Shown in pieces: positions 9,663 through 52,382 of a DNA stretch of 64,000 bases. This stretch comes from a virus: positions 32,001 to 96,000 of the IMG/VR virus record IMGVR_UViG_3300032313_000518, one strand, 5' to 3'. A model generated the notes under the pieces. That model ran no database searches. It was not told the origin of the DNA and saw nothing but the letters and a program-made list of their open reading frames with translations. Each line of letters begins with the position of its first letter. Positions within the stretch are counted from its first letter, which is position 1. The position numbers and the translations under genes are program-made.

Positions 9663-10403
9663 ATGACTAAAAGAGAAGTATTATATAATGCTAGTTTAGC
9701 AGTATTAGCATATTCAAAAGAAGAGCAAATTAAGTGGAGTGATTATGGGTTAGAGTTAGTGAAGTGGATTCACAACGATAAATCAGATACACAGGGATTT
9801 GTAGCAACGCGGGATAAAGCAATCTATGTTGTGTGGAGAGGTAGTGAATCAAAGAAGGATTTTCAAAATGATGCTTCAATTGATAAAGTACCATTTATAA
9901 ACGATGGAGAGAAAGTACACATTGGATTTAAATATTGTTGGGAATCGGTAGTGGGTGATACCTATGATGCAATCGATATTGCAATAGAAAACCTACAAGG
10001 AGAAACTACGGATATTGTAGTTTGTGGACATAGTTTGGGTGGAGCAATAGCAACATTGTATGCACACTCAATTAAGAAACACTATCCACATTACAACATT
10101 AAATCCGTAACAATTGGAAGTCCAAGAGTTGGCAACAAAACATTTAAGGACAATTACGATTCATATGAGATTGATACTTTGAGAGTGGTACACAATAACG
10201 ATTTGGTAACACATACACCATACATTAGATTTTATCACGTAAACTATCAATTAAGATTAGATAGTGATGGTAATGTATTAAAGAGAGATACATCATTAAA
10301 TGCATTATGGTTATACCTTAAAGCAATATTTTCAGGTAGTAATATCAAAGACCATATGGGTGATGGGTATATGAAAGCATTACAAAATTGGGTAACAAAA
10401 TAA
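9663..10403 (+). CDS. class 3 lipase (alpha/beta hydrolase)
   Basis: VVWRGS, KVHIGF, GHSLGG nucleophile elbow, GSPRVGN, HNNDLV, C-terminal DHM. Confidence 0.9.
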   Translation: MTKREVLYNASLAVLAYSKEEQIKWSDYGLELVKWIHNDKSDTQGFVATRDKAIYVVWRGSESKKDFQNDASIDKVPFINDGEKVHIGFKYCWESVVGDTYDAIDIAIENLQGETTDIVVCGHSLGGAIATLYAHSIKKHYPHYNIKSVTIGSPRVGNKTFKDNYDSYEIDTLRVVHNNDLVTHTPYIRFYHVNYQLRLDSDGNVLKRDTSLNALWLYLKAIFSGSNIKDHMGDGYMKALQNWVTK

Positions 10404-11528: not shown

Positions 11529-11612
11529 TACAAACTTAACAATTTGATAATATTAAAAGTATAATTTTATTAAGGTAGTTTCCTATATATTGGTGAAAAT
11601 TAAAACATCAAT

Positions 11613-14096
11613 ATGAGGAAACTACTTTTATTATTAACGTTACTAATTCCCATAATATCCTTTTCACAAACCTTATCGGGTAAAACAAAATCAAATAAAG
11701 AAGAACTCATTGGAGTTACAATTTGGCTAACTAACAAAAATACAAATAAAAAAATTGGAAGTACATCTGATATCGAATCCAAATATCAATTCCAAAATGT
11801 AGTAGCTGGAAACTATTCAATCAAAGCATCATTTGTTGGATATAAAGAATATACAAAAGATATTACAATTAATGGAGATACCAATTTAGATATCCTAATT
11901 GAAGAAGATACAAAAGTATTGCAAGAAGTTGTAGTAAAGCAAGTAGCAAAGAAAGAAACTGCAACCGCACTTATCAATACACTTAAAGCATCTTACATTG
12001 TAGCAGATGGTTTATCAATCGAATCAATAAAGAAAACACCAGATAGAACTGTTGGAGATGCACTTAAAAGAGTTAGTGGTGTAACAATCCAAAACGATAA
12101 GTTTGTTTTAGTTAGAGGTTTAGCTGATAGATACAACTCGGCTCTACTAAACAAATCAATCCTACCATCAACCGAACCCGATAGAAGAGCATTCTCATTT
12201 GATATTATACCAACATCACTAATAGATAATATTATCATCAACAAAGGAGCATCGGCAAACCTACCGGGTGATTTCGCAGGAGGTTTGGTACAAATTACAA
12301 CAAAGGAAGTTAGTGGTGATTTCTTAAATGTATCATTGGGAGGAAGTTGGGGTTCACTATCAACGGGACAGAATTTTAGATTGGTAGACCCAATACAATT
12401 CCCATCAACGTTCCCATCAACAAACGGATATAGGATTGCTGGATTGGGTGATAGAAGAGCATACACTAAACTAATAGGTTCGCCACAATCCGAAGAGTTT
12501 TCATCTATTCCAAACTTAAATGGTAACTTATCATTTGGTGTTGTAAAAAACAAATGGAACATCTTATTCAGTTCAACAGCAAGAAATACATATTCAGCTA
12601 ATACAACCGAAAGAATCGATTATCAATCATCAACTGAATTAGCATACAATTACAAAGACTTAAATTACTCAAATGTACAATCTCTAAATGGATTATTGAA
12701 CATAGTTTATTTAGGAGAGAATCGTTATAGTTGGAAAACACTTGCTAACTACCAAAACGAAAAATCATTTTTAAGTAGAGTTGGTGAGAACTATGATAAT
12801 GTTCAGTATGTAGATAGTAAATCATCCAACTCAATTCAAAAGTTAGTATTCAATACACAATTTGAAGGTAAGATTAAAACATTGGATTTTAATGTAGGAT
12901 ATAATCTTATGTTGAGAGACCAACCTGATTATAGAGTAACACCTTACATATCATCTTTATATACATCAACACCTTATTCAATAGCATGGAGAGATACCTA
13001 TCGTTTTTGGAGTGTAATGGATGAAAACTCATTCAATGGGGGATTAAACAAATCCATAGGAGATATTCGTTTAGGAGTGGGTTACTTGAAGAAATTGAGA
13101 AACTTCAAAGCAAGAATATTCAGATACGAATCAATGGATTTATTAAATGAGATTACAAACAACACCGATAGATATACTGCCGATTTTGATTTGGCAAATG
13201 GATATGTGATGTATGAAAAAGAAATCAATGACCTAAAAGTAAATACAGGTTTTAGAACAGAATACAATTTATTCAAAGTTCAAACATCTGATTTTAGTGG
13301 ACAACGGATTTCAGTAGATAGAGAGTATTTGGATTTACTCCCATCATTAAACGCAACATATTCAACATCAGAAAAAACAAAGGTTAGATTATCGGTAAGT
13401 AAAACATTAGCAAGACCAGAGTTTAGAGAGGTAGCTAATTTTGCGTATTATGACTTTGTTAGAAACGCACAACTATTAGGAAATCCAAACTTACAAAAAA
13501 CGGATATATTCAATTCAGATATAAAGTTCGAGTTGTATCCTAAATCAGGTGAGAATATATCAATCGGTTTTTTTGGTAAGAAGTTCTTCAATCCAATTGA
13601 GCAAGTTGTAGCAGATGGTTCAGTTCCATCAAATCTATTATTAACATATAAAAATCCAAATGAAGCATTGGTATATGGAGTTGAAATTGAACTTCGTAAA
13701 AAATTAAATGATTGGTTAGATTTATATTCAAACACATCATTCATCAATTCGGAAGTTGATATAAATGGAATTAAAAGACAATTGCAAGGACAATCAAACT
13801 ATGTAGTAAATGGTGGATTGAACTTACATAAAAACAACAATACGTTCAACATATCATACAATAGAGTTGGAGATAGAATATCAGCAGTAGGATTTCAAGG
13901 ATACCCCGATATATTTGAAAACTCTCGTGATGTAGTTGATATTGTTATTCTTCGTAAAATTAAAAACGGAGAAATTAAATTAGCAGTATCGGATATATTC
14001 AGACAACCATTTGAGTATTACCAAAAACCAAATAGAACTTTAATTAAAACAAACAACGAAACAACAGTTTCACTAACACTAAATTACAACCTATGA
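11613..14096 (+). CDS. TonB-dependent receptor (Bacteroidota type)
   Basis: Signal peptide, carboxypeptidase-regulatory-like N-domain, LQEVVV, plug DALKRVSGV..VRGLADRYN, TLARPEFRE, GNPNL, C-terminal LNYNL. Confidence 0.92.
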   Translation: MRKLLLLLTLLIPIISFSQTLSGKTKSNKEELIGVTIWLTNKNTNKKIGSTSDIESKYQFQNVVAGNYSIKASFVGYKEYTKDITINGDTNLDILIEEDTKVLQEVVVKQVAKKETATALINTLKASYIVADGLSIESIKKTPDRTVGDALKRVSGVTIQNDKFVLVRGLADRYNSALLNKSILPSTEPDRRAFSFDIIPTSLIDNIIINKGASANLPGDFAGGLVQITTKEVSGDFLNVSLGGSWGSLSTGQNFRLVDPIQFPSTFPSTNGYRIAGLGDRRAYTKLIGSPQSEEFSSIPNLNGNLSFGVVKNKWNILFSSTARNTYSANTTERIDYQSSTELAYNYKDLNYSNVQSLNGLLNIVYLGENRYSWKTLANYQNEKSFLSRVGENYDNVQYVDSKSSNSIQKLVFNTQFEGKIKTLDFNVGYNLMLRDQPDYRVTPYISSLYTSTPYSIAWRDTYRFWSVMDENSFNGGLNKSIGDIRLGVGYLKKLRNFKARIFRYESMDLLNEITNNTDRYTADFDLANGYVMYEKEINDLKVNTGFRTEYNLFKVQTSDFSGQRISVDREYLDLLPSLNATYSTSEKTKVRLSVSKTLARPEFREVANFAYYDFVRNAQLLGNPNLQKTDIFNSDIKFELYPKSGENISIGFFGKKFFNPIEQVVADGSVPSNLLLTYKNPNEALVYGVEIELRKKLNDWLDLYSNTSFINSEVDINGIKRQLQGQSNYVVNGGLNLHKNNNTFNISYNRVGDRISAVGFQGYPDIFENSRDVVDIVILRKIKNGEIKLAVSDIFRQPFEYYQKPNRTLIKTNNETTVSLTLNYNL

Positions 14097-15295
14097 AAAA
14101 ATTATTAGTATTGTTCGCAAGTTTAACAATCTTTGGATGTTCTAAAGATTTGGGTGGAGAAGTTACACCAATCAATGTACCAACCTCAACAACTTTGAGT
14201 GGTAACATCACATCAACTACAACTCTTACATCGGATAAAGAGTGGGTATTAAAAGGATATGTTTATGTAACCGATGGTGCTAAACTTATCATTCAACCTG
14301 GCACAACAATCAAATCTGATATAAGTGAGAAAGGTGCATTGTGTATTGAAAGAGGAGCACAAATTGTAGCAGAAGGTACTGTAGCAAAACCAATCATATT
14401 CACATCTGGTAGACCTGCTGGAGAAAGAACACCTGGTGATTGGGGTGGTATTGTAATATTGGGTAGAGCAAAAACCAATAGAACGGCAGAACCAACTATC
14501 GAAGGTGGTATCGGAAGACCTTATGGTGGAACAAACGATTTAGATAATAGTGGTGTTCTAAAATATGTAAGAATTGAATACGCTGGAATTGCAGCAATGC
14601 CAAACTCTGAAATCAACGCACTAACATTGGGTGGAGTTGGTAGTGGAACAATTATTGAGAATGTTCAAACTATCTACGCTAACGATGATGCATTTGAATT
14701 CTTTGGTGGAACTGTAAATGCTAAAAACTTATATGCATATGGAACTGCGGATGATGATTATGATTTTGATTTTGGATATAGAGGAAAAGTATCTTTTTCA
14801 GTATCAAAGAGAGACCCACAATTCGTAGATAATGGTGATGCGGGAAATGGTGTAGAGTGTGATAATGATGGAACAGGTTCAACAGCAGAACCATTTACAC
14901 ATCCTATTTTAGATAATATGATTTTAGTTGGGCCTAACGATGCAACATCTTTAGCAAACCACAATTTAGCAATGAGATGGAGAAGAGCAACTCAATTTGA
15001 GGTTTACAATTCTACAATCATTGGATATATGAAAGGTGGTTTCTCAATGGAAAGTAATGAAACTGCACAATTCTACAAAGATGGTGTAAGTAAGTTTCAG
15101 AACAATAAAATTGGTTCATACAACTTATTAAACTTTATCAGTAAGGCAACTACTATTATTACATCGGATGTAGTTAAAACAAAAGCATTAAGTGAAGGTA
15201 ATACTGAAATAACTTTAACTCCAACCGAAATAGAAACCTTATCTAAACCAATTTGGACAGCAGGTTGGACTAAATTCCCAACGAAAGGAAACTAA
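14093..15295 (+). CDS. surface lipoprotein with a right-handed beta-helix, partner of the TonB-dependent receptor
   Basis: Lipobox IFGC; KPIIFTS..PGDWGGIVILG, DNSGVLKYVRIEYAG, DDAFEFFGG, DDDYDFDFGY; overlaps the receptor stop (ATGA). Confidence 0.8.
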   Translation: MKKLLVLFASLTIFGCSKDLGGEVTPINVPTSTTLSGNITSTTTLTSDKEWVLKGYVYVTDGAKLIIQPGTTIKSDISEKGALCIERGAQIVAEGTVAKPIIFTSGRPAGERTPGDWGGIVILGRAKTNRTAEPTIEGGIGRPYGGTNDLDNSGVLKYVRIEYAGIAAMPNSEINALTLGGVGSGTIIENVQTIYANDDAFEFFGGTVNAKNLYAYGTADDDYDFDFGYRGKVSFSVSKRDPQFVDNGDAGNGVECDNDGTGSTAEPFTHPILDNMILVGPNDATSLANHNLAMRWRRATQFEVYNSTIIGYMKGGFSMESNETAQFYKDGVSKFQNNKIGSYNLLNFISKATTIITSDVVKTKALSEGNTEITLTPTEIETLSKPIWTAGWTKFPTKGN

Positions 15296-15296
15296 A

Positions 15297-16010
15297 ATGA
15301 AAGATAAATTAACTATCATCATCCCATCAAAAAACGAAAGCGATACTTTATATGATTGCTTACAATTTTTGTATAATCAAACGGATATAGATGGTTTTAG
15401 AGTTATAGTAGCAGATATATCAGATGACCCATATTCGGTTGGTATTTTATATAAAGCAAGAAGTAATTTCAAAGATAAATTAAAAATTGAAGTAATAAAA
15501 GGTGGGTATCCATCGGAAGGTAGATTGGCAGGTTCTAAACTTGCCAATACTCCTTACATTCTGTTTTTAGATGCAGATGTATTTCTTACAAACCATAGTT
15601 TGTTAAGTGATATATTCAAAAAGTTGGAAACAACAAAGATAGAACTATTAACTACACCATTTCAAACTTCTAAAAAATGGAATTGGGTGTTTCGTATTTT
15701 TGATATATTCCAATGGTTGAGTGTAAAGATAAACTCACCATTTGCAGTAGGTGGATTTCAGTTATGGGATAGACAAGCATATTGGAAAGTAGGGGGATAT
15801 AAAAAAGATGAATTGTTTGCGGAAGATTATTCACTTTCATCAAAATCAAATCCAAAGTATTTTCATATACATAAAACAAACGGAGTTTGGACATCACCTC
15901 GTAGATTTCAAAACAAAGGAGTATTCTATATGGTTTCTTTAATGATGCAAAGTTACATCAACAGAAATAATCCTGAATTTTTCAAACAACATCACAATTA
16001 TTGGGTTTAA
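15297..16010 (+). CDS. family 2 glycosyltransferase
   Basis: LTIIIPSKNE, ILFLDAD, VGGY..FAED, TSPRRF. Confidence 0.9.
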   Translation: MKDKLTIIIPSKNESDTLYDCLQFLYNQTDIDGFRVIVADISDDPYSVGILYKARSNFKDKLKIEVIKGGYPSEGRLAGSKLANTPYILFLDADVFLTNHSLLSDIFKKLETTKIELLTTPFQTSKKWNWVFRIFDIFQWLSVKINSPFAVGGFQLWDRQAYWKVGGYKKDELFAEDYSLSSKSNPKYFHIHKTNGVWTSPRRFQNKGVFYMVSLMMQSYINRNNPEFFKQHHNYWV

Positions 16011-16012
16011 TT

Positions 16013-16108
16013 ATGGGCACTATATTTCCTTTTCTTTTTGGATTTGCAGTTGTTATAGCAGGTTGTATTGTTATGATGATTGTAGACCAAATTTCTAAAA
16101 AAAGATAA
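16013..16108 (+). CDS. 31-aa single-TM peptide (not in the ORF track)
   Basis: MGTIFPFLFGFAVVIAGCIVMMIVDQISKKR*; fills the gap and its stop overlaps the next ATG (TAATG). Confidence 0.6.
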   Translation: MGTIFPFLFGFAVVIAGCIVMMIVDQISKKR

Positions 16109-16818
16109 TGTACAAATATATCATAGTATCAGATTTACATTTAGGTACTAAACATAGTAAAGCAAAGGAGTTCTTACAATTCATAGAAGAGAACCCATGC
16201 GAACAACTTATTCTCAATGGGGATATAGTTGATGGATGGGCATTGCAAAGAGGAACTAAATGGAGAACATCTCACACAAAGGTAATTGCTAAACTAATAA
16301 AACTATCCACAAAGCAAAAGGTAGTTTGGATACGGGGAAATCACGATGATTTTCTTAAAGATTTTATTGGTACTAATTTGGGTAATATAAAAATCAGAGA
16401 AGATTATATTATTACCGCAGATAAAAGATACTTCATATTTCACGGAGATATTATAGATGTATTTATTACAAAATACAAATGGTTATCACAAATAGGAGCG
16501 GTTGGATACGATTTTGCTTTATTACTAAATGACGTGTATAATTGGTATCGTAAGTGGAGAAATCTACCTTATTATTCAATATCACAAAGAATAAAAGAGG
16601 GTGTTAAAATAGCAACCAATTATGTTAATGATTTTGAAACAACCGCAATCCGAATGGCAGGTGATAAGATGTGTGATGGTGTTATTTGTGGACACATTCA
16701 CCAACCCGCTGACAGAATGATTGGTAAAAAACACTATCTCAATTCAGGAGATTGGGTTGAGAATATGACAGCAATCTGTATAAATGATAACAATAATATA
16801 ACAATTAAAAGAATATAA
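16108..16818 (+). CDS. plcP: PlcP-like metallophosphoesterase (phospholipase C; LpxH superfamily)
   Basis: SDLHLG, GDIVDGW, GNHD, HGD, KWLSQIG..Y, PYYSIS..IK..VK, DGVICGHIH, YLNSGDWVE..TA. Confidence 0.75.
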   Translation: MYKYIIVSDLHLGTKHSKAKEFLQFIEENPCEQLILNGDIVDGWALQRGTKWRTSHTKVIAKLIKLSTKQKVVWIRGNHDDFLKDFIGTNLGNIKIREDYIITADKRYFIFHGDIIDVFITKYKWLSQIGAVGYDFALLLNDVYNWYRKWRNLPYYSISQRIKEGVKIATNYVNDFETTAIRMAGDKMCDGVICGHIHQPADRMIGKKHYLNSGDWVENMTAICINDNNNITIKRI

Positions 16819-16824
16819 TTGTGA

Positions 16825-16832
16825 TATTTATA
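16825..16832 (+). promoter_or_regulatory. putative late promoter TATTTATA
   Basis: 20 nt before ATG 16853. Confidence 0.65.
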
Positions 16833-16852
16833 TATACAAACTAAACAAATAA

Positions 16853-17893
16853 ATGTCATCCTCAAAAACTCTGTTTATATTAAAAAGAAAACAAAACTAT
16901 AATCTTTCAACCGATTATAGTGTTGGATTAAGCACCGGCCTGTACAATTCGGCTCAATTTATGAATCAAATGCTATTAGATGGCGGGTTTGATTCTCAAA
17001 TGGTAGTTGTAAATGATAATAACGATATAGATAGAGAAGTAACTCTACACAAACCAACCCACGTTATTATTGAAGCTCTTTGGGTTGTTCCATCTAAATT
17101 CGAAGTTCTTTGCAAATTACATCCAAACGTTAAATGGGTAATTCGTTTACATAGCGAAATACCATTTTTAGCAAATGAAGGAATGGCAATGGATTGGATT
17201 GGGGAATATAGTAAATTTGATAATATTATTATTTCTTGCAACTCACCACAAACTACCAAAGATATTGAGTTTTATATGAGTACAAAATTGGGTATTAAAA
17301 AGAATATAGCTTTTTTACCAAATTTTTATCCACAACAATATAAAACTAAATCATTCAATAAGAAAGGTGATACGATTCACATAGGATGTTTTGGTGCAAT
17401 TAGACCTCTAAAAAATCATCTTATACAAGCATTTGCAGCAATTAAGTTTGCAGATGAAATTGGTAAAAAATTACATTTCCATATCAATTGCGATAGAGTT
17501 GAACAAAAAGGAGAACCAATATTAAATAACTTAATAAGTATGTTCAATCATTTAGAACATAAAGGTCATAAGTTAGTTCATCATGAGTGGAGTGTTAGAG
17601 AGCAATTTATTCAATTATGTTCTACGATGGATATTGGAATTCAGATATCATTTAATGAAACTTTTAATATTGTAGGAGCTGATATAGTTTCACAAGGAGT
17701 TCCTTTGGTATCTTCACCTGAAATCCCTTGGGCTAATTCATTATTTACTGCAAGACAAACTAATACTGATGATATTGTAGATTCACTATTATGTACTTAC
17801 GCATATCCAAAAATAAATGTATTATTAAATCAAAGAGGTCTTGAAAAATATACAAATAAAACAAAACATATTTGGTTTAAGTTTTTCAAATGA
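16853..17893 (+). CDS. GT-B (family 4-like) glycosyltransferase
   Basis: IGCFGAIRPLKN and SFNETFNIVGADIVSQGVPLV (variant of the E-x7-E motif). Confidence 0.7.
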   Translation: MSSSKTLFILKRKQNYNLSTDYSVGLSTGLYNSAQFMNQMLLDGGFDSQMVVVNDNNDIDREVTLHKPTHVIIEALWVVPSKFEVLCKLHPNVKWVIRLHSEIPFLANEGMAMDWIGEYSKFDNIIISCNSPQTTKDIEFYMSTKLGIKKNIAFLPNFYPQQYKTKSFNKKGDTIHIGCFGAIRPLKNHLIQAFAAIKFADEIGKKLHFHINCDRVEQKGEPILNNLISMFNHLEHKGHKLVHHEWSVREQFIQLCSTMDIGIQISFNETFNIVGADIVSQGVPLVSSPEIPWANSLFTARQTNTDDIVDSLLCTYAYPKINVLLNQRGLEKYTNKTKHIWFKFFK

Positions 17894-17935: not shown

Positions 17936-19546
17936 TTGAAAAAGTTAAAAGTTTTATTAAGTGTATTATTCATATTCTGTCTAGCTTCCAAAGCTAACGG
18001 ACAAACAACATTTACACAAACATTTATAGATAAGTGTACTGGAGAAGTAAAACTCGCCACCACTACCTATGTCAATGGAAATGCCTTTGTATCATTCTAT
18101 GACCAAATGAAAGTATTCTCACCCGAAGAAGTTCAAAGTGGTGCAATGAAAATTTGGTTACAAGCAGTTTACCTTGCTTATGCAAATAAGACTTGTGCAA
18201 CTGCAACGGTAGTTCAACAAACCATTCAACAAACGGTAAACCAAGCAGTTCAACAAGCAGCATCTCAAGCGGCTCAACAGGCAGCAGCTCAAGCCGCATC
18301 ACAAGCAGCAGCTCAAGCGGCTTCACAAGCAGCAGCTTCAGCCGCACAATCGGCAGCAGCTTCGGCAGCTCAATCAGCGGCAAGTTCAGCTGCATCATCT
18401 GCTGCTTCTTCTGCGGCAAGTTCAGCGGCAAGTTCAGCTGCATCATCTGCCGCTTCTTCTGCGGCTAGTGGAGCGGCTTCATCGGCAGCTGGTTCTGCGG
18501 CTAGTGGAGCAGCAGCTTCGGCAGCCGGAGCGGCAGTACCACCACCCCCACCAACTCCATCCGCACCTGCTCCTAGCGCTCCGGCTCCTTCTGGTGGAGG
18601 TTCACCTACCCCATCATCAAATAGTTCTTCTGGTGGAGGAAACGGAGGTGGTAGTTCATCACCAAAAGCAGAAGCAAAAGCTGAGGCAAAAGCTGAGGCA
18701 AAAGCCGAAGCTAAAGCTGAATCAAAATCGGAAAGTAAGAGTGAATCTAAATCAGAATCCAAATCCGAATCCAAAGAAGAAAGTAAATCCGAAAGTAAAA
18801 GTGAGGAAAAGAAAGAAGAATCAAAATCGGAATCTAAAAAAGAAGAAAAGAAAGAAGAGAAAAAGGAAGAGAAGAAACAAAAAGCAGCACCAATAAATCC
18901 ATTATTATTGGCATCGGATTTAAGTGTAGTAGAATCCGAACCTGGTAGTTGGCAGGCAATCCTATCAACTGGTGTATCTCGTTCATCAATGGCTGGAGAT
19001 GAAAGTTATTCAGCTAGTTCAATGATTTGGAGTAATCTAAAACAATTTGCCCTAAGTGGTGGTTATACTAAGATGAACTTCAAAGATGGAGCATTACATT
19101 CTATGAACTCATACTCACTAACTGGTGCATATTTGGATAGAACCTATATGAGTTTAGTTGGATTGACAGTAATAATACCACACCCAAAGATTGGAGTATA
19201 TGGATACAATGTTGGTTTAGTTAATCTATTCTCACCAAAAGAAGGTGGGGGATATGGATATAGTGTAAGTAATTCTGGTGTTCTATTTTGGACTAAACCA
19301 TATCAAACTACAAAGAAATTAACACTATCACCGCAAGTGTTTACAATGTTACCTGGTGGAAGTTGGGATACAACCAATGGTACATTCACTTATAGTTCCG
19401 ATGTTGGATTATTATTGGGTACTTCGATTGATTACAAAATCAGTAAACGTTTTGGATTTAGTTTTAATTACAAAATCAATACGTCTACTGCTGCAGGGGC
19501 TCCGATATTAAGTAACTTTTTAATTGGTTCTAGATTGATGCTTTAA
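17936..19546 (+). CDS. secreted protein: small Cys domain, Ala/Ser and Glu/Lys low-complexity stalk, C-terminal beta-barrel
   Basis: TTG start, signal peptide, (AASS)n, poly-Pro, (EAKA)n/(ESKS)n/(EEKK)n; barrel similar to 6189-7088. Confidence 0.7.
   Translation: MKKLKVLLSVLFIFCLASKANGQTTFTQTFIDKCTGEVKLATTTYVNGNAFVSFYDQMKVFSPEEVQSGAMKIWLQAVYLAYANKTCATATVVQQTIQQTVNQAVQQAASQAAQQAAAQAASQAAAQAASQAAASAAQSAAASAAQSAASSAASSAASSAASSAASSAASSAASSAASGAASSAAGSAASGAAASAAGAAVPPPPPTPSAPAPSAPAPSGGGSPTPSSNSSSGGGNGGGSSSPKAEAKAEAKAEAKAEAKAESKSESKSESKSESKSESKEESKSESKSEEKKEESKSESKKEEKKEEKKEEKKQKAAPINPLLLASDLSVVESEPGSWQAILSTGVSRSSMAGDESYSASSMIWSNLKQFALSGGYTKMNFKDGALHSMNSYSLTGAYLDRTYMSLVGLTVIIPHPKIGVYGYNVGLVNLFSPKEGGGYGYSVSNSGVLFWTKPYQTTKKLTLSPQVFTMLPGGSWDTTNGTFTYSSDVGLLLGTSIDYKISKRFGFSFNYKINTSTAAGAPILSNFLIGSRLML
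18240..18880 (+). repeat. coding 12-nt-period low-complexity repeats
   Basis: Degenerate tetrapeptide repeats QAAS, SAAS, EAKA, ESKS, EEKK. Confidence 0.85.
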
Positions 19547-26120: not shown

Positions 26121-28154
26121 ATGGCAATAACTACAACAAATAAAAACTTTAAAAATAAAGGAAAAGATATAAAATATCTTGGTAAAGATTTTACTAGCTT
26201 TAGAAGTAATTTAATAGAATTCGCTAAAACATATTTTCCTAAATCATATTCTGATTTTAATGAAACTTCACCAGGTATGATGTTTATTGAAATGGCGTCA
26301 TATGTTGGTGATGTTCTTTCATATTATGTAGATGATACTTTTAAAGAATCATTAATGCCATATGCAGAAGATATTCAAAGTGTAATTGCATTATCTCAAT
26401 TTTTAGGGTATAAACCAAAAGTAACGGCTCCTGCAATTACTGATATAGCTGTCTATCAATTAGTTCCATCGATTGGTACCGGTACATCAAATATACCCGA
26501 TTCAAAATATTATTTAAGAATAAAAGAAGGAATGGTTGTGGAATCAACCAATACTATTCAATTCAGAACAACTAGTTTATTGGATTTTTCAGATTCAAAT
26601 AATAGACAAATAACTGTTTACCAAAGAGATTCAAATACAGGAGAACCAACTTTTTATTTGGTAAAAAAATACGTTCAGGTTATATCTGCAATACAAAAAC
26701 AAGAAACTTTTACATTTGGTACATATCAACCATTTCAAACTATTGATTTGATTGATACGAATGTAATACAAATATATGATGTAAGAGATTCTAATAATAA
26801 CAAATATTATGAAGTTCCGTATTTAGGACAGGAGATGATATTTGTTGATGAACCAAATAATGAAATAAACGATCCTGATTTGGTTCAATTTAAAGACACA
26901 GTACCTTATGTATTAAAAACTATAAAAACGCCAAAACGATTTGTAGCTAAAGTAAATCAAGATAGTACAACTACATTACAATTTGGAGCAGGTGACCCAT
27001 CTGCTAGTGATGAACAATTAATTCCAAATCTTAAAAACGTTGGATTGGGATTACCAAACTCTATTAGTAGATTAGAAGAATCATTTGACCCAACAAATTT
27101 CTTAAAAACAAAAACTTATGGTACATCTCCATCAAATACTAATATAATTGTTAAGTATTATGTAGGTGGTGGGGTTGAATCTAATGTAGCACAGCGTACT
27201 ATAACAAAAATAGCATCTGTTGAATATGATGAAAATTCTTCAACATTTACAAATCAACAATTACCCGTTTATAATTCAATAAAAAAATCATTATCAGTTG
27301 ATAATGAAATGCCTGCGGTTGGTGGTCGTGGTGGTGAAACCATAGAAGAAATTAGACAAAATGCATTAGCAAACTTTGGCGCACAAAATAGAGCAGTAAC
27401 TGCACGAGATTATCAAGTAAGAGCATTATCTTTACCATCTAAATATGGTGGTATAGCTAAAGTATATGCAACTGCAGATGGTACATTAGATAATAATTCA
27501 CCCGCATCTATATTATCATCACCAAATCATTTACAAGAGTTTACTGATTTAGTAATGAGTTTTGTAAATAAACCTGACATACAAGAACCAACATCAGCTG
27601 TAGTTAAGCAAGAACTTACTAAATATTTAGTTGGTAAAGAATCTAATTTAAAAGAAAAAAATAATCCATTTGCAATTAATCTTTATTTGTTGGGTTATAA
27701 TTTAAACAATCAATTAACAAATTTAAATAGAGCAGTAAAGGAAAATCTTAAAACATACTTAAATGAATACAGAATAATGACCGATGCTATTAATATAAGT
27801 GACGGATTTGTTATTAATATAGGAATTGATTTTGAGATAATTACTTATAAAAATTATAATAAGAGTGAAGTTTTAACAAATGTAATTACTGAATTAAAAA
27901 ATTATTTCAATATTGATAATTGGACATTTAATCAAACTATAAATTTAAGTGAGGTTGAGTTAATGATTGCAAATATAGAGGGAGTATCATCAGTACCAAT
28001 GTTAAAAATAACAAATAAATGTGGTGGTAACTATTCAAGTAATTCATATAATATAGATGCGGCAACTAAAAGTAAGGTAGTATATCCATCGTTAGACCCA
28101 TCGGTTTTTGAAGTTAAGTTTCCGGATTCAGACATTAAAGGAAGAGCAAAATAA
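26121..28154 (+). CDS. baseplate wedge subunit, gp6/baseplate-J-like
   Basis: KDFTSFRSNLI..DFNETSPGMMFIEMASYVGDVLSYY; LQFG; GGRGGETIEEIR..AQNRAVTARDY. Confidence 0.9.
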   Translation: MAITTTNKNFKNKGKDIKYLGKDFTSFRSNLIEFAKTYFPKSYSDFNETSPGMMFIEMASYVGDVLSYYVDDTFKESLMPYAEDIQSVIALSQFLGYKPKVTAPAITDIAVYQLVPSIGTGTSNIPDSKYYLRIKEGMVVESTNTIQFRTTSLLDFSDSNNRQITVYQRDSNTGEPTFYLVKKYVQVISAIQKQETFTFGTYQPFQTIDLIDTNVIQIYDVRDSNNNKYYEVPYLGQEMIFVDEPNNEINDPDLVQFKDTVPYVLKTIKTPKRFVAKVNQDSTTTLQFGAGDPSASDEQLIPNLKNVGLGLPNSISRLEESFDPTNFLKTKTYGTSPSNTNIIVKYYVGGGVESNVAQRTITKIASVEYDENSSTFTNQQLPVYNSIKKSLSVDNEMPAVGGRGGETIEEIRQNALANFGAQNRAVTARDYQVRALSLPSKYGGIAKVYATADGTLDNNSPASILSSPNHLQEFTDLVMSFVNKPDIQEPTSAVVKQELTKYLVGKESNLKEKNNPFAINLYLLGYNLNNQLTNLNRAVKENLKTYLNEYRIMTDAINISDGFVINIGIDFEIITYKNYNKSEVLTNVITELKNYFNIDNWTFNQTINLSEVELMIANIEGVSSVPMLKITNKCGGNYSSNSYNIDAATKSKVVYPSLDPSVFEVKFPDSDIKGRAK

Positions 28155-45016: not shown

Positions 45017-46087
45017 ATGGAAGAAAAATATTTATCTTTTGATTCTTGGTTGGGTGGTGTTTCTAATGTTAAAATGTCTTATGAACTAATAGCAGCTATT
45101 AGTATTATTACAAATAGAACAATTATATTACCACCAAAAGTATATTGTTGCTTTTTTTCAAATGTGAATGAAAAATCTACATTTTTTGATATATGGAATA
45201 TTTTAGATAAAGAAGCATTTATTACCCAATTTAAATGTGTGGAATACGAAGATGTTCCAGAATATAAAATGCTTGAAAATGATTGTCAGTATTTTGAAAA
45301 TGTAAATAATATTGCATTAACTATAATGTTTGGTGATGAATTTAAACAAACAGGTGTACAAGAGGCAATTGGAAATAGAGTTATTGTAAATACTATAAAT
45401 GATACTGATGATTTTAACCAATTTAGTGTTAATAGAGAAGAGGTTAGTGTAAATTACAATCATAAATTTATACATTTTCCAAGAAATTTATTTGGTCATT
45501 TTTACTATAACATTTACGGAAATGGGGCTGTAGAACGGAATTTAATAAAACAAAAAATAAAAAAAGGAATAGTTTATAAAAACCAATATTTTGATTTAGC
45601 AAAAAAAGTAAAATTAAAAATAGGAGAATATAATTCAATTCATATAAGAAGAAATGATTTTATTCATGTTAATGCTAATCATGCAATACCACAATTGGAT
45701 AATTTAATGAATGATATAAAGGATAGAATACCAAACAATATTCCACTATACATAGCCACAGATGAAAAAAACAAAATTTTATTTGATTTTTTAAAAGAAA
45801 GATACACTATATATTTTTTAGAAGATTTTTTTAAAGATTTAAATCAATATGAATCATTGGTAATTGACCAAATAATATGTAGTGAATCTGATATATTTTT
45901 GGGAAGTAAATTATCAACATTTAGTGATTATATAAACATAATAAGAGGATATTTTGGAAAAAAAGATTTTCACAGAGAAGGAACTAATTTTAAAATGAAA
46001 ACTTTGGTTTATAATAAATTTCCTTGGGAAGTTGAAGAGCATTGCTGGGACAAGATACATTCCTATCGTTGGAATGATGAAATTTAA
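45017..46087 (+). CDS. GDP-fucose protein O-fucosyltransferase-like GT-B enzyme
   Basis: GGVSNVKM..NRTIILP; SIHIRRNDF; LYIATDE; IDQIICSESDIFLGSKLSTFS. Confidence 0.8.
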   Translation: MEEKYLSFDSWLGGVSNVKMSYELIAAISIITNRTIILPPKVYCCFFSNVNEKSTFFDIWNILDKEAFITQFKCVEYEDVPEYKMLENDCQYFENVNNIALTIMFGDEFKQTGVQEAIGNRVIVNTINDTDDFNQFSVNREEVSVNYNHKFIHFPRNLFGHFYYNIYGNGAVERNLIKQKIKKGIVYKNQYFDLAKKVKLKIGEYNSIHIRRNDFIHVNANHAIPQLDNLMNDIKDRIPNNIPLYIATDEKNKILFDFLKERYTIYFLEDFFKDLNQYESLVIDQIICSESDIFLGSKLSTFSDYINIIRGYFGKKDFHREGTNFKMKTLVYNKFPWEVEEHCWDKIHSYRWNDEI

Positions 46088-46172: not shown

Positions 46173-49100
46173 ATGGCAAGAATTAAAAAATATGCACCAA
46201 CGTTAAATGAAAAATTAACAACTTTTCAAACATTTATTGTTGATACAAACCCCAATTCCGACTATTTTAGAATTAGTGAATTTAAAGAAACATTAACTGG
46301 TGGTAAGAACGGATTTCAAATTGAAGGTTCTGAACATTTATTAGAAAGTACCGAAATTAAAATAGAAGTATTAGATGTTGAGGGAAATACAGTTTACTAT
46401 GAACCTGGCGATGGTATACCTGAATACTATGAAGGTATATCAAAAATTGTATCAGTTCACATCTATGAAGATACTCCTATTGGTGAAGCAATAATTACCG
46501 TATTAGGTGAATTAAAAACATATGTAGATGAAGATGGTGTTGTTAGAGATGTTCCAACTGAATGGAAAGGAATTTATAATTGTAAGTGGGAACGAAGAGT
46601 AAAAATAAATAAATTTCTTTCAAATGAAGATAAGGTTAGATTTTATAGAAGACCTAAAGTAACAATAGCAGAAATTGTAAAACCATTATTTTCAAATGTA
46701 GTAACTCCAAAAACAAATACTGGAAATGTAAGTGGAATACCATTATTTCCAATTGCTGGAACTAATTTAAGTCAATACACATTACCAACATCTTATTTAT
46801 TAAAAATCACCGATACCGGTAACTTTAGTGCATGGACTGGGTCTGTTGTTGAAAATACAATAAGCATACCATCATTAGATTATACAACAACTGCTCAAGA
46901 AGTAATAAACAAAACGGAGTTAGTCGTAACAACTCCATACACCCAAAATGGATTAGTAAGTTCTTTTACAAATACACCATATACAACTACATTCAATTAC
47001 ACAGAAGGTCTTGATAATTTAGCAACCGCATTAACTGGTTCATTTGCAAAAATAACACTTACCGATTTAACATCTTTTGTTGGGGATGTTGCTAGAGTTA
47101 AAGTATTTAGAAAATCACAAACTGATTTATCCGATTATCAATTTGTACAAGAAATAGCATTAGAAGCAAATGAATTGTTGGTAGATTTAGCTACAACAAC
47201 CAAAAACCAAGAAAATTACGGATTATTTACAACCAATATTATCAATAATTATTGGATTGAATCTTCAGCAAATATAACAGCTACTTACAATCAAACATAT
47301 TTGTACGATTCTGCTAAATTAGATAGTGTATCCGGTGTTAATAAATTTTACACATCCGAATATATTCCTATAACAAAAGATGTAGAATATACTTTAGATT
47401 TTAATATTAGATTGGGTGCTAACGTATCGGCTAATAATTATATAAGAGTATTTTTAAGTGGTTCTTTGAATGGAGGAGCTGTTCAAATTGAACAAAATAT
47501 AACTACAATAACATCAAGCGATTCTTTATTACAAAAAACAATATCCACCAATAATATAAAAGCTGAAGAAATTCAAAATGCTAGATTATATTTTGAGGTA
47601 GTTGGTAGTAATTGGTATATTGCAAATGTTAGTTTACGAGCATCCAAAGAAACAGCATTTTCACCCGATGAAATAACATTTATACAACCAGTACCAAGAA
47701 GTTTACCGGTACAAACATTTATATATAAATTTGAGTTTTATGATATAAATAACAATTATATACCTGTATTAGTTGAAAAACAAAAAACATTCAATGGTGG
47801 TAATTTACAAACAATACAAAAAAGTTTACAATTACTACCATCATCTTTGTATTTTCAATTTGATTCCGGTTCAAATCCAGTTCCACCAACTTCTATAAAC
47901 ATTAAAGTTGTAAAAACATTATTAACTGGTTCTGTTCGATATACATCTCAATCATTTGATTATGATGGTAGTACCCACACTGCTTTACAATATGCAGGTG
48001 GGCAATATCCTGGTGTATTAAATCAAGCAAATCCTGATAATGTAATATTAACTGTTGCAAACTTTACTGGTAGTAGAAGTGATAAAAATGTACAATATTT
48101 AGAAATAACTGGTGAAGTGGAAGGATTTACTGATACTATTGTTATAACAAAAGTATTGGATGGATTTGGTGGTGTAAACTATATTATTAGACCGTATAGA
48201 GGAACTCAAATCAGAAATAGTAGTACTGCTTCATTAGAAATTCAAGCGGTAAGAATTGATGGTGTTAATGAGATTATTTTAAATGATACAATTGGAAGAC
48301 CAAAAGGGTGGCATACTTATCAACTTCACGTATTATCAGCATCATTAGACCCATTGAACGAACCCGAAAAGTTTATCAATTTACAAAAAGCAGTCAATCA
48401 AAATTATATTAAAGGATTATCTGTTGGACAATTGGGTAGTAAACAACTAAACTACAATGCAATATTTAATAGAGATTCTATAAATAAAGTAAGAGTAGTT
48501 TATATATTATCTTCTGGTTCAATAACACAACAACCTGCGTTTATAGCATCTGCATCTGTATTATCATCTATAAATTTGGAGGATTTGCAAGATGGTTTAG
48601 ATGCTGGGTTTATGGCATATAATACGGATACGTTTACTATCAATCCAAGAACACAAACTATATTCACACCGGTATCGGCAAGTGTTACTGGTTCATTTTA
48701 TAAAAGAGGAACTAACGCAGAACCATTTACCGCATCATTTGAGGTATTCCCATCAATGTCTTTAAATTTAGATTATGAGCCTGAATATTGGATGTATTAT
48801 GTAACTGGTAAATTTCATCCAAATATTTCGGTAGTAGCAATTGATGAAAAGAAAAGAACAATTCCATCAAGAGCAGTTAGTTCATATACAGGATTACCAA
48901 TATCTCAAAGTAAAACATTAACTGTAACTTTAACTTATACTGAAGATTATACATCATCATCTATAAGTTTAGATAAGACATTTACAATAGTACCTGAAGG
49001 AAAGCCTGGTGATGAGAGTATTGTGTTTGAAGTAGTACCTGCTAATGTAACTTTAAATTCAAATTCGGAAGGAATTGTTTTGGATTACAAACCATCCATA

Positions 49101-52100
49101 ACTGATATTAAATTAAAGCAAGGTAGTAGATATTTGGTATTTACTGGTAGTAGAGATGCTGGTACGTTTCATATTGCATCATCTTCAATTAGTTCACAAA
49201 ATATAACTCCGGGTAATGTACACTTTACATCATCATTTGGAGTACCATATACGGCATCTTTAATAGTATCCGCATCTTCAAATCTTACGGATTTAAGTGG
49301 TAGTATAACATATCCATTGATTATACATCCATATTATACATCATCGATATATACACAAAGTATAGTACAAAATTATACAAAAGCAGTTGATGGGCCTCCG
49401 CAAATTGATGTAATAATAACACCCGCCAATATTACATTAAATGCCGATGAGGTTGGATATGTATCAACATACGCATCTGCACAAACTACAATTCAATTAA
49501 AAGAAGCTGGTAAGTTTTTGGTATTTAATACAGCATCAACTTCACCTGGTACATTTAGATTATTAACATCAGCTAGTAAAAATATAACCGCAAGTTTAAG
49601 TGGTGTTGGAACTACTACTGTTACTGCATCATTTAGTAGATTTGATTATCCATATGTATCAGCTAGTATTGTTTATAATATTTTAGCACATCCATATTCA
49701 TTAGGACCCGGTCATAGATTTACATCATCAGTATTTGAAAGAACTCAAAATATTACAAAAAATGTTGCATCATCTGCCGCAAGAAGTGTTAAATTAGCAG
49801 CATCATCGTATAGTGTAACATATGATAGTGATGGACAAGTTGTTAATCCAACGGATGGTATTACTTTAGTAGCAACCGCATTTAATACATCGGGTTCAAA
49901 ATATTATCAATTTTTCAAAGATGATGTTTCACAAGGACCTATAACGGCAGTTGCAACTAGAACAATTGGACCTGAAGATGCGGTTGCTGCTGGTGAAATT
50001 GCAACTTGGAAAGTAACATTGAGAGATGGTAGTAGTTCAACCGCTGCACCAATTAAAGCACAGGATTCTATTACAATTACTGGAATACGGGAAGGTATAA
50101 AATCATATAATGGGTATCTAACAAATGAAAGTTCTACGATTGTATATACGGTACAAGGTACAATATCATTTACAAATACAGGTACAACAATAGTAGCATC
50201 AAAAGGTAATACAACATTAACTGCGGTAACTTCATTTAGTGCACAATCTCAAGACCCATTTGGAAATAACATTGGTTCATTGGGTGAGTACAAAGTAACA
50301 ATACATTCTAAATCAGCTAATATAACATTGGCTGGCTCTTTAGTATCTGGAAGTACAGTGCCTGTTGTTAGTGGACAAGCTACTATTGGAAACGTAATTG
50401 GATGGACCTCACCAACAACAATTTTAACTGGGGCTGTTGTTTATAGAATTGATTTTGAAAATGGAAAACAAGTTCTTTTCAAAACACAATCTATGGCAAT
50501 TCAATTGGAGGGTAAAGTTGGACCTGGTATTGTATTCAGAGGTCCTTGGAGTTCAACTGTTGACCAGTATTATTATGACCCATCTATTGGAAGAAGAGAT
50601 GCGGTTTTATATGGAGGAACGGGTGGAACATACTATGCAGCTAAATCCGGTAGTGGGGATACTACTTATTTAAATCCAAGTGCAAATACATACTTCTCTG
50701 GTTCTGTTGGTGATGCTACAGCTGGTGGTTATGTAACTTATTTAAATTACAAAACGCCGGGAATTGATACTGATTATTGGGAAGCATTAGGAACACAAGA
50801 ATTATTTGTGGCAGCTAAGATTGCAATTTTTGAAGAATCATATGTTCAAAATACAATCAACGTTGGTACAAACGCATTGGGTTCTGCCGCAAATATTATC
50901 CTTTATGGAAACGTTGATAGACCTTATATTTCAATAGGTCAAACTGGTACAATTGGATATGGAAATAGTGGTATATGGTTAGGTACATTTGGTTCTCCTG
51001 GTTTCACAAGTCGTTTATCTTTAGTTGGTAGTGGTGGTTCATTAACATGGGATGGTAATAATTTATCAGTTAGTGGGGCTGTAAACGCAACCACTGGTAC
51101 TTTTAGTGGATATGTTACGGCGGGTGGAGTACAATTGGGAGCTGCTCTTCCAACTAATCCAATTGGGTCTGGTACTGCTAATGGTTTATATATAAATACA
51201 CACAATTATTTTGTAGATAATGGAACAACTACCGTATTTAAAGCAGGTAATGCTTCAAATTATGTAAGTTGGGATGGGAGTAATCTTAATATAAGTGGTG
51301 GTGGTACATTTACAGGTGAACTTAGTGGTGGTACTATTAATATTGGTGGAAATGATGCAACTAGTTTCCACGTAGATTCTGCAGGACAAATGTGGCTAGG
51401 TGCAGGAAATAGTGGATTTGCTACGGCACCATTTAAGGTTACTGCTGCAGGTGCTTTAAGTGCAGCAAGTGCAAATATAACTGGTTCTATATCGGTAAGT
51501 AGTGGTACATTTACTGGATTTATTGATGTTGATGGATTTTATATTGGTAAAAATGTATATTCAACTTACTCTGGAATTTTTAATGGCACCAGTCGTTGGA
51601 CTACCGATGGTTCGATTACTCTTAACGCAGGTAACATTGGTGGTGATACAACACAAGGATTGAGTATATTAAATAACTCATTTTGTTCATATAGAGGAAA
51701 TCTTTTAGTTGCTACACCTGCTAATTATGATTCAAACCATTGGTTAAGTTATGTAACAATTGGAGTTTCACCATCTACATTTGGTGTTTTGGATAATAAT
51801 ACAATGTATTTGGGTAGAAGTGTGAATGGTTCAAATAATGGTATTTATATGAACTCTACAAACTATTGGTACGCTGGTAGTAATTCAACAAACCCATCTA
51901 TGAAAGCTGATATAGTTGGTGGTTCTATAAGTGGTATATCATCATTAGGTGTTAGTGGGGCAATTACTGGAACCAGTTTAGCTATATCTAATGCAACTGC
52001 TGCAAATGGTACTATAACCGCAACTGGAAATATTACGGCATTTTTTTCCGATGAAAGATTAAAAACAAAATTGGGTAATATTGATAATGCAATAAATAAA

Positions 52101-52382
52101 ATATCTAAACTAAACGGATTTTACTATACAACCAATGAGTTAGCAAATTCATTTGGATATACTGATACCAAAACACAATTAGGTTTATCCGCACAAGAAG
52201 TACAAAGTGTATTTCCTAATATTGTATCATTGGCACCATTTGATATGAAAGAAAATACTATGGATGAATCTAAATCTGGAGAAAATTACTTAACAATTGA
52301 TTACTCCAAATTAGTACCTGTATTAGTTGAGGCAATAAAAGAATTGAAAGCAGAAATTGAAGAATTAAAAAGAAATAAATAA
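46173..52382 (+). CDS. large tail fibre with a C-terminal intramolecular chaperone (peptidase S74)
   Basis: 2069 aa; Gly-rich beta repeats; FSDERLK..GLSAQEVQSVFP..DYSKLVPVLVEAIKELKAEIEELK. Confidence 0.85.
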   Translation: MARIKKYAPTLNEKLTTFQTFIVDTNPNSDYFRISEFKETLTGGKNGFQIEGSEHLLESTEIKIEVLDVEGNTVYYEPGDGIPEYYEGISKIVSVHIYEDTPIGEAIITVLGELKTYVDEDGVVRDVPTEWKGIYNCKWERRVKINKFLSNEDKVRFYRRPKVTIAEIVKPLFSNVVTPKTNTGNVSGIPLFPIAGTNLSQYTLPTSYLLKITDTGNFSAWTGSVVENTISIPSLDYTTTAQEVINKTELVVTTPYTQNGLVSSFTNTPYTTTFNYTEGLDNLATALTGSFAKITLTDLTSFVGDVARVKVFRKSQTDLSDYQFVQEIALEANELLVDLATTTKNQENYGLFTTNIINNYWIESSANITATYNQTYLYDSAKLDSVSGVNKFYTSEYIPITKDVEYTLDFNIRLGANVSANNYIRVFLSGSLNGGAVQIEQNITTITSSDSLLQKTISTNNIKAEEIQNARLYFEVVGSNWYIANVSLRASKETAFSPDEITFIQPVPRSLPVQTFIYKFEFYDINNNYIPVLVEKQKTFNGGNLQTIQKSLQLLPSSLYFQFDSGSNPVPPTSINIKVVKTLLTGSVRYTSQSFDYDGSTHTALQYAGGQYPGVLNQANPDNVILTVANFTGSRSDKNVQYLEITGEVEGFTDTIVITKVLDGFGGVNYIIRPYRGTQIRNSSTASLEIQAVRIDGVNEIILNDTIGRPKGWHTYQLHVLSASLDPLNEPEKFINLQKAVNQNYIKGLSVGQLGSKQLNYNAIFNRDSINKVRVVYILSSGSITQQPAFIASASVLSSINLEDLQDGLDAGFMAYNTDTFTINPRTQTIFTPVSASVTGSFYKRGTNAEPFTASFEVFPSMSLNLDYEPEYWMYYVTGKFHPNISVVAIDEKKRTIPSRAVSSYTGLPISQSKTLTVTLTYTEDYTSSSISLDKTFTIVPEGKPGDESIVFEVVPANVTLNSNSEGIVLDYKPSITDIKLKQGSRYLVFTGSRDAGTFHIASSSISSQNITPGNVHFTSSFGVPYTASLIVSASSNLTDLSGSITYPLIIHPYYTSSIYTQSIVQNYTKAVDGPPQIDVIITPANITLNADEVGYVSTYASAQTTIQLKEAGKFLVFNTASTSPGTFRLLTSASKNITASLSGVGTTTVTASFSRFDYPYVSASIVYNILAHPYSLGPGHRFTSSVFERTQNITKNVASSAARSVKLAASSYSVTYDSDGQVVNPTDGITLVATAFNTSGSKYYQFFKDDVSQGPITAVATRTIGPEDAVAAGEIATWKVTLRDGSSSTAAPIKAQDSITITGIREGIKSYNGYLTNESSTIVYTVQGTISFTNTGTTIVASKGNTTLTAVTSFSAQSQDPFGNNIGSLGEYKVTIHSKSANITLAGSLVSGSTVPVVSGQATIGNVIGWTSPTTILTGAVVYRIDFENGKQVLFKTQSMAIQLEGKVGPGIVFRGPWSSTVDQYYYDPSIGRRDAVLYGGTGGTYYAAKSGSGDTTYLNPSANTYFSGSVGDATAGGYVTYLNYKTPGIDTDYWEALGTQELFVAAKIAIFEESYVQNTINVGTNALGSAANIILYGNVDRPYISIGQTGTIGYGNSGIWLGTFGSPGFTSRLSLVGSGGSLTWDGNNLSVSGAVNATTGTFSGYVTAGGVQLGAALPTNPIGSGTANGLYINTHNYFVDNGTTTVFKAGNASNYVSWDGSNLNISGGGTFTGELSGGTINIGGNDATSFHVDSAGQMWLGAGNSGFATAPFKVTAAGALSAASANITGSISVSSGTFTGFIDVDGFYIGKNVYSTYSGIFNGTSRWTTDGSITLNAGNIGGDTTQGLSILNNSFCSYRGNLLVATPANYDSNHWLSYVTIGVSPSTFGVLDNNTMYLGRSVNGSNNGIYMNSTNYWYAGSNSTNPSMKADIVGGSISGISSLGVSGAITGTSLAISNATAANGTITATGNITAFFSDERLKTKLGNIDNAINKISKLNGFYYTTNELANSFGYTDTKTQLGLSAQEVQSVFPNIVSLAPFDMKENTMDESKSGENYLTIDYSKLVPVLVEAIKELKAEIEELKRNK

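Follow-up and report, generated by a model that had tools for sequence, protein, structure and literature searches.

Lack of phosphorus often holds back the production of phages in lakes and oceans, and the known viral answers to it are the genes pstS, phoH and phoA. These classical genes of cyanophages and pelagiphages are host-derived and are thought to relieve phosphorus limitation. Here we describe a group of genes that may serve a related purpose, located at positions 11613 to 17893 of a 64,000-nucleotide stretch of viral DNA (hereafter the window), which covers positions 32,001 to 96,000 of the 110,968-bp IMG/VR virus contig IMGVR_UViG_3300032313_000518 (CheckV completeness about 58%). 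The group comprises genes for a TonB-dependent outer-membrane transporter, a beta-helix lipoprotein, two glycosyltransferases, a hydrophobic peptide of 31 amino acids (aa) and a metallophosphoesterase of the PlcP clade.

The closest described counterpart of the phosphoesterase and its partner is the bacterial PlcP-Agt operon, as found in Sinorhizobium meliloti (SMc00171), Pseudomonas aeruginosa (PA3219-PA3218), Phaeobacter MED193 and SAR11 HTCC7211 (PMC4796936, PMC8528852). The window protein belongs to the same clade as these PlcPs, with 37-39% full-length identity and shared motifs, and it resembles them also in its tightly coupled glycosyltransferase and in the phosphorus-stress neighbours of its relatives. 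However, the viral version differs from the bacterial operon in being phage-encoded, in having as partner a 237-aa glycosyltransferase of family GT2 (GT-A fold) without a close cellular homolog instead of the GT4 enzyme Agt, in the position of this partner, which is upstream rather than downstream, in a 31-aa membrane peptide between partner and PlcP, and in lacking the C-terminal tail of cellular PlcPs. LpxH has the same metallophosphoesterase fold and length and is a distant full-length match, but the viral enzyme departs from it in its clade, in a score below the cut-off of the LpxH model and in its PlcP motifs. For the transporter and the lipoprotein, the closest described systems are Fjoh_0545, a TonB-dependent transporter with the domains pf07715, pf13715 and pf14905, and Fjoh_0546, an FII lipoprotein with a pectin-lyase fold, which lie in the phoBR operon of Flavobacterium johnsoniae and rise 8.0 and 9.9 log2-fold, respectively, on phosphate depletion (PMC8115612). 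A link to phosphate is also supported by the BT4055/BT4056 'lid' family, of which Caulobacter ElpS is a member (bioRxiv 10.1101/2023.03.17.533168). The window pair has the same three transporter Pfams, the beta-helix lipoprotein, the gene order and the strand in common with Fjoh_0545/0546, BT4055/BT4056 and ElpS, a likeness of architecture and not of alignment; unlike the Fjoh_0545/0546-type pairs, it is phage-encoded and its transporter is about 100 aa shorter than the cellular homologs. Finally, whereas the products of pstS and phoA are a periplasmic binding protein or phosphatase, the window cassette would target membrane phospholipid and adds an outer-membrane TonB system, although the two kinds of genes also meet in one phage, since pstS of Mosig adjoins a PlcP gene. 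We found no paper describing a phage PlcP in a literature search.

The genes of the cassette are as follows.

11613..14096, plus strand: TonB-dependent outer-membrane transporter, non-SusC, 827 aa, with signal peptide (CarbopepD_reg_2, Plug, OMP_b-brl_3)
14093..15295, plus strand: beta-helix lipoprotein, 400 aa, lipobox IFG/C followed by SKD (PF28492 Beta_helix_4)
15297..16010, plus strand: GT2 (GT-A) glycosyltransferase, 237 aa (PF00535, E-value 6.7e-16)
16013..16108, plus strand: 31-aa hydrophobic peptide with a single transmembrane segment (reading of the open reading frame)
16108..16818, plus strand: PlcP-clade metallophosphoesterase, calcineurin-type (Metallophos PF00149, E-value 1.3e-15)
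16853..17893, plus strand: GT-B fold (GT4-like) glycosyltransferase, 346 aa (AlphaFold2 (AF2) model and Foldseek)

The stop codon of the receptor gene overlaps the start of the lipoprotein gene, and that of the 31-aa peptide overlaps the PlcP start (TAATG). An earlier note on this DNA, made from the letters alone, had described these genes as a phosphate-scavenging and membrane-lipid-remodelling cassette, and they are indeed present as described there, tightly packed and all on the plus strand.

As judged from its sequence, the phosphoesterase is a PlcP-clade enzyme and not LpxH. It is 39% identical to PA3219 over the full length (170 bits), whereas the match to Escherichia coli LpxH reaches 31 bits and is confined to the N-terminal half, and with the NCBIfam LpxH model NF003743 it scores 50.1 bits, below the cut-off of 134. 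Two LpxH-like genes are present in all five Bacteroidota genomes checked, and the relative of the viral protein (paralog B) is the one with the lower LpxH-model score. In a maximum-likelihood tree of 70 sequences, the viral proteins, paralog B and both characterised PlcPs share one side of a branch with a Shimodaira-Hasegawa-like approximate likelihood ratio test (SH-aLRT) support of 99, as do the phage proteins of Mosig and S-SRM01 and other proteobacterial homologs; E. coli LpxH and the second Bacteroidota gene, paralog A, stand on the opposite side. Within the PlcP side, the lineage of the window protein is sister to a small Bacteroidota group (support 95). The motifs GDI(V/I)DGW, WLxxxGxxxY, PY(W/Y)SxS and GDWVE are common to the two reference PlcPs and the window protein; LpxH and paralog A lack them. 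The metal-binding motifs are intact, since SDLHLG, NGDIVDG, GNHDD, HGD and CGHIH align with those of the characterised PlcPs at the DxH, GD, GNH(D/E), H and GHxH positions. Thus, the PlcP assignment that the earlier note had drawn from GDIVDGW, WLxxxGxxxY, PYYSIS and GDWVE is borne out, since tree, motifs and pairwise scores agree: the four motifs are present and align with the S. meliloti and P. aeruginosa proteins, they are absent from E. coli LpxH, and the phylogeny that the note had proposed as a check groups the protein with characterised PlcPs, apart from LpxH. Accordingly named, the viral PlcP is a predicted phospholipase C that would yield diacylglycerol and a phospho-head group.

The two reference PlcPs were identified by gene context and identity, and were taken from chromosome-sized records in a plasmid collection. 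The S. meliloti reference lies near an acyl-homoserine lactone synthase gene and a LuxR regulator gene and is the sole match in its 3.7-Mb record, and the P. aeruginosa reference is followed by a GT1 gene, fitting the PA3219-PA3218 arrangement. The identity between them was 47% as measured here, and the published value is 46% (Jones et al., PMC8528852). As to the records themselves, the 3.7-Mb S. meliloti record (L226, CP090106.1) is labelled pSymB and carries the chromosomal plcP region, and the same holds for the P. aeruginosa 'plasmid' record (L227, NZ_CP137508.1). Both records give the characterised PlcP the name UDP-2,3-diacylglucosamine diphosphatase.

Relatives of the viral PlcP were found in at least 576 IMG/VR stretches, and neighbourhoods were counted in 80 loci of the window type and in 80 further loci from a second scan, for which the Mosig protein headed the PlcP alignment; for cellular comparisons we used 201 Bacteroidota genomes, 80 cellular paralog B loci and 28 cellular lipoprotein loci. 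The nearest relatives of the window phosphoesterase are viral. Their identity to it is 57-100% in the nearer half of the 80 window-type loci and about 47-51% in the more distant half, and metagenome proteins with about 70% identity number in the thousands. The best cellular matches belong to Bacteroidota and have at most 50% identity. A sequence search of the PDB with the phosphoesterase alone gave no match.

The GT2 gene is located directly upstream of plcP in 77 of the 80 window-type loci, down to identities of 47% for PlcP and 34% for GT2, and its DxD motif (D92/D94) is invariant. This GT2 family was absent from all 80 cellular loci, and no close homolog was found in the 201 Bacteroidota genomes. 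Since the best match there reaches only 35 bits, the GT2 family looks virus-specific. In the 80 Mosig-like loci, the gene directly after plcP encodes an Agt-type GT4 in 43 and a member of the GT2 family in 20, never both, and these viral Agt-type enzymes share 34-43% identity with PA3218 or with the homolog from Roseomonas. The order of PlcP and glycosyltransferase is reversed in these loci relative to the window, so that the pair persists in both orders. These counts uphold the claim that the phosphoesterase is functionally coupled to a glycosyltransferase in the manner of bacterial plcP, through GT2 in the window's own lineage and through Agt or GT2 in its sister lineages. Since GT2 alternates with Agt beside plcP, we argue from position that GT2 does the job of Agt, and it is therefore a candidate diacylglycerol glycosyltransferase. 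We also considered GT2 as a member of the Pgt/GT21 group and rejected this, as it has no detectable similarity to the lipid GT21/Pgt enzymes. For the 31-aa peptide between GT2 and PlcP, conservation across related loci is 61-100%. Two loci that have no PlcP (L247 and L253) carry it immediately ahead of the GT4-like gene, and its proper partner may be this gene and not plcP.

The transporter-lipoprotein pair is a host-derived, accessory module. The receptor has the Pfam domains PF13715, PF07715 and PF14905 and scores 171 bits with TIGR01782, below the cut-off of that model; it is 28-37% identical to Bacteroidota TonB-dependent receptors (TBDRs) encoded upstream of lipoprotein homologs. Such a TBDR gene lies directly upstream on the same strand in 26 of the 28 cellular lipoprotein loci. 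Homologs of the lipoprotein, to which Atlas assigns PF28492 Beta_helix_4 (score 0.98), occur in 130 of the 201 Bacteroidota genomes with up to 62% identity. Its AF2 model is all-beta, with a predicted local distance difference test (pLDDT) score of 82.5, and its Foldseek matches are all weak and are all right-handed beta-helix enzymes or tailspikes. Conserved acidic clusters in the protein include DDxxE, DDDxDxD and ExDN. A role as a tailspike was considered for the beta-helix protein and rejected in view of its lipobox, its identity of up to 62% to cellular lipoproteins and the retained transporter partner. The lipoprotein probably lies exposed at the cell surface, where it may serve the transporter as its lid or as a binding partner.

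The earlier note stated that such receptor/lipoprotein pairs lie near pho genes in Bacteroidota and suggested a survey of the neighbourhoods of the closest host homologs. The statement proved sound: in addition to Fjoh_0545/0546 in the phoBR operon, 7 of the 28 surveyed cellular pairs stand beside a response regulator and a kinase whose best families are PhoB and PhoR/PnpS, both below cut-off, and other pairs stand beside Pit with PhoU_div or beside Ppk/Ppx. In two cellular loci (L003 and L008) the pair adjoins a PlcP-glycosyltransferase pair. Among viruses, the transporter pair is present in the nearest relatives of the window (L083, L084, L086 and L119), and in a distant group (L131, L135 and L137) it lies beside PlcP and its glycosyltransferase in swapped order. 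In two further loci (L128 and L134) the lipoprotein alone, without the TBDR, is beside GT2 and PlcP. Adjacent lipoprotein and TonB receptor genes, with 38% and 27% identity to those of the window, are also found at 77532-81045 of a 635-kb uncultured phage genome (GenBank LR745206.1), and therefore unrelated huge phages captured the transporter pair too.

The 346-aa protein encoded downstream of plcP has an AF2 model with a pLDDT of 93 and matches the GT-B enzymes SenB, BshA and TarM with a Foldseek probability of 1.0, and 13 of 40 members of its family match GT4-type Pfams (Glyco_trans_1_4). The label 'GT4-like' is thus appropriate. The role in lipid remodelling that went with it is doubtful, since the gene is rarely near plcP and co-occurs with true Agt. 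Members of the family abound in large viral contigs, where at least 564 IMG/VR stretches carry one; among the 80 of these in which neighbourhoods were counted, only 8 have PlcP within 8 kb. The Agt queries (PA3218 and the Roseomonas homolog) and the 346-aa gene match different viral genes, and both kinds co-occur in three loci (L358, L391 and L398). Compared with Agt by hhalign, the 346-aa protein obtained a probability of 7.6%, and it is thus not detectably Agt-like, the GT-B fold alone being common. We therefore regard the gene as a widespread phage GT-B gene that is only loosely linked to plcP, a neighbour rather than a proven part of the pathway.

Among cellular relatives of the viral PlcP, paralog B turned up in about 26 of the 61 genomes sampled from class Bacteroidia, of which 53 gave at least one match. 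A GT-B gene (PF13528/TIGR00661) lies directly downstream of paralog B in 43 of the 80 Bacteroidota loci, and other neighbours include a calcium-dependent phosphatidylinositol-specific phospholipase C, two PhoD types, Ppk1, Ppx and TBDRs. Phosphate-depleted F. johnsoniae induces its PlcP (Fjoh_4577) by 8.6 log2-fold (PMC8115612). In proteobacteria, the PlcP homolog is followed by a GT1/Agt gene (Pseudomonas, Roseomonas) or by a GT21-type gene (Fuscovulum), and in Mitsuaria it adjoins ppk1/ppx. In Mosig, a Pelagibacter phage, the PlcP homolog is beside pstS. One metagenome-assembled genome (L014/G206) is labelled uncultured Thalassobius sp., and its PlcP contig groups with Bacteroidota. Since the 'Thalassobius' class sample shares genomes with the Bacteroidota sample, this label or the binning looks wrong.

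The window comes from a large uncultured phage of Bacteroidota, and the terminase, tail fibre and baseplate genes in the same stretch mark it as genuine phage DNA. The features outside the cassette that bear on the argument are listed below.

9663..10403, plus strand: class 3 lipase without signal peptide (PF01764, E-value 2.7e-30), outside the region covered by the earlier note
17936-19546, plus strand: secreted 536-aa protein with a low-complexity stalk (Ala/Ser, Pro, Lys/Glu) and a beta-barrel-like C-terminal part
26121-28154, plus strand: baseplate wedge protein, a phage marker
41673-44816, plus strand: SbcCD-like nuclease
45017-46087, plus strand: further glycosyltransferase
46173-52382, plus strand: tail fibre, a phage marker
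53940-56120, plus strand: glycosyltransferase-methyltransferase fusion (phrog_2170 and phrog_2675)
57724-60735, plus strand: 1003-aa protein with a cytidylyltransferase domain
61480-63072, plus strand: terminase large subunit, a phage marker

We considered whether the cassette might be host DNA in a mis-called viral contig and ruled this out, since phage structural and packaging genes flank the cassette on the same strand, the composition is uniform (guanine-plus-cytosine content 0.27-0.38 along the window) and the synteny is common to dozens of viral contigs. All long open reading frames of the window are on the plus strand. A DNA-level search of GenBank phages with the whole cassette gave no useful match. 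The class 3 lipase gene, which precedes plcP by 5.7 kb, may be a further lipid-active auxiliary gene. The nearest relatives retain it, and in another locus (L249) a 77%-identical copy immediately follows the GT4-like gene, at a distance of 6 kb from plcP.

Taken together, we lean towards the view that the locus is a mosaic of envelope and phosphorus-stress auxiliary genes with which the phage would supply itself with phosphorus, from the membrane and through uptake, under phosphate stress, a reading that we hold with some confidence given the clade of the phosphoesterase and the company that it and the transporter pair keep. In such a scheme, the PlcP-type, metal-dependent phospholipase C would remove the phospho-head group from host glycerophospholipids, and the virus-specific GT2 would glycosylate the resulting diacylglycerol to a phosphorus-free glycolipid, so that the phage could gain phosphorus for making its nucleotides without loss of membrane integrity. 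The captured transporter and lipoprotein, made in the infected cell, would add uptake of a substrate that probably contains phosphorus. The downstream GT-B gene would be a separate phage glycosyltransferase gene, adjacent through lineage history. Of the first reading of the locus, then, the PlcP, the coupled glycosyltransferase and the pho-linked pair stand, the single unit and the role of the GT4-like gene do not, and the activities, substrates and regulation, as well as the benefit under phosphate limitation, are what we infer from them.

A bolder form of this scheme is a two-level phosphorus supply, in which GT2 displaced Agt beside plcP inside the cell while a phage TonB transporter with its lid imports an external phosphorus compound. 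It would be the first case of TonB-dependent nutrient uptake encoded by a phage, and GT2 would stand for a new class of diacylglycerol glycosyltransferases; we put this form forward only tentatively.

Several observations weigh against these readings, at different points. The cassette does not behave as one unit, as had been proposed, since among close relatives TBDR-lipoprotein, GT2-peptide-PlcP and GT4-like gene are each present or absent regardless of the others. Two contigs that are 94-100% identical to the window (L245, IMGVR_UViG_3300042387_000438; L246, IMGVR_UViG_3300042484_001250) carry the receptor, the lipoprotein and the GT-B gene without GT2, peptide and PlcP. The absent block is about 1.6 kb and looks like a natural presence/absence polymorphism. 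Conversely, two other relatives (L087 and L088) keep GT2 and PlcP without the transporter pair. From both patterns it follows that the parts of the cassette do not need one another. In the cellular genomes too, transporter pair and PlcP are seldom together, with PlcP within 10 kb in none of the eight closest pair loci and in one of the 28 surveyed. As for the glycosyltransferase, a profile search with GT2 against solved structures returned generic GT-A matches only, the best of which included chondroitin synthase and TarS, and neither BLAST nor hhalign revealed significant similarity between GT2 and the two glycosyltransferases encoded after a PlcP-like gene in Fuscovulum, one of GT21 type and one of 237 aa. 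Because the similarity is only of this generic kind, diacylglycerol as the acceptor of GT2 is suggested by gene position alone. The window also contains several other glycosyltransferases, and the sugar chemistry of this phage is therefore not lipid-specific. Lastly, the PlcP tree holds one proteobacterial LpxH only, on a long branch.

The main rival to phosphorus supply is remodelling of the envelope, in which changed lipids, together with the transporter and its lid, would mask receptors, leading to superinfection exclusion or protection of the progeny, with the gain in phosphorus incidental. A precedent for part of this is the lipoprotein Llp of phage T5, which blocks the TonB-dependent transporter FhuA. 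The loci L128 and L134, with the lipoprotein beside GT2 and PlcP and no TBDR, are as expected of a receptor-capping protein, the neighbourhood of the cassette is full of exported envelope proteins, the window has further glycosyltransferases, and lipid remodelling has been tied to phage adsorption in published work (PMC9804370, PMC9938194). However, the viral pair retains a complete transporter with plug and barrel and not the lid alone, the partner of PlcP alternates with Agt, an enzyme of a phosphate-stress pathway, Mosig pairs PlcP with pstS, and the cellular relatives sit among phosphorus genes. On balance, envelope remodelling as the main function seems to us rather unlikely. Breakdown of the membrane, for lysis or as a source of carbon and energy, is still less probable. 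Host lipids would then be degraded at a late stage of infection by PlcP and the class 3 lipase, with the glycosyltransferases acting on unrelated targets such as glycans of the virion or the cell surface. In favour of this, a cytoplasmic Lipase_3 protein is encoded 5.7 kb upstream, another lineage has it close to both plcP and the GT-B gene, and the profile matches of GT2 are generic; but the strict adjacency of GT2 and PlcP in both orders and the exchange with Agt point to a two-step pathway, and no lysis genes are adjacent in the window.

That the gene is instead a true lpxH, an auxiliary gene of the lipid A pathway, has been largely refuted, and we give it hardly any credence. Its appeal is mainly one of names, since the Joint Genome Institute (JGI) and GenBank call the homologs UDP-2,3-diacylglucosamine hydrolase and 'lpxH' is listed among lipopolysaccharide-related auxiliary genes (PMC10653327, PMC9611531), together with the weak full-length match of 50 bits to the LpxH model. 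This name is also borne by the records of PA3219 and the S. meliloti PlcP, the score is far below the cut-off of 134 bits, the tree places the protein with characterised PlcPs, and Bacteroidota carry a separate LpxH-like paralog that scores better.

If phosphorus supply is what the cassette provides, a viral PlcP-glycosyltransferase pair would make the host membrane a phosphorus store open to phages. Although the pair is common, virome surveys count its phosphoesterase gene, under the name lpxH, among those for lipopolysaccharide synthesis (PMC10653327, PMC9611531). The GT2 enzymes that alternate with Agt are a candidate new family of lipid glycosyltransferases, and the window adds a physical link between PlcP with its glycosyltransferase and a phage-encoded pair of TonB transporter and lid. 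A phage copy of this phosphate-induced pair is an independent hint that an abundant, uncharacterised system of Bacteroidota matters for nutrient supply, and it also offers a compact version for structural and functional work.

A scan of the region for promoters and terminators gave counts at or below chance. The best sigma-70-like match, at 11536-11565 (TTAACA, an 18-nt spacer and TATAAT), is located in the 84-bp gap 5' of the receptor gene; such matches are not above chance here, and Bacteroidota promoters differ from the sigma-70 type. The secreted 536-aa protein encoded directly after the cassette (17936-19546) had no Pfam match, and its homologs are found in 13 related viral loci.

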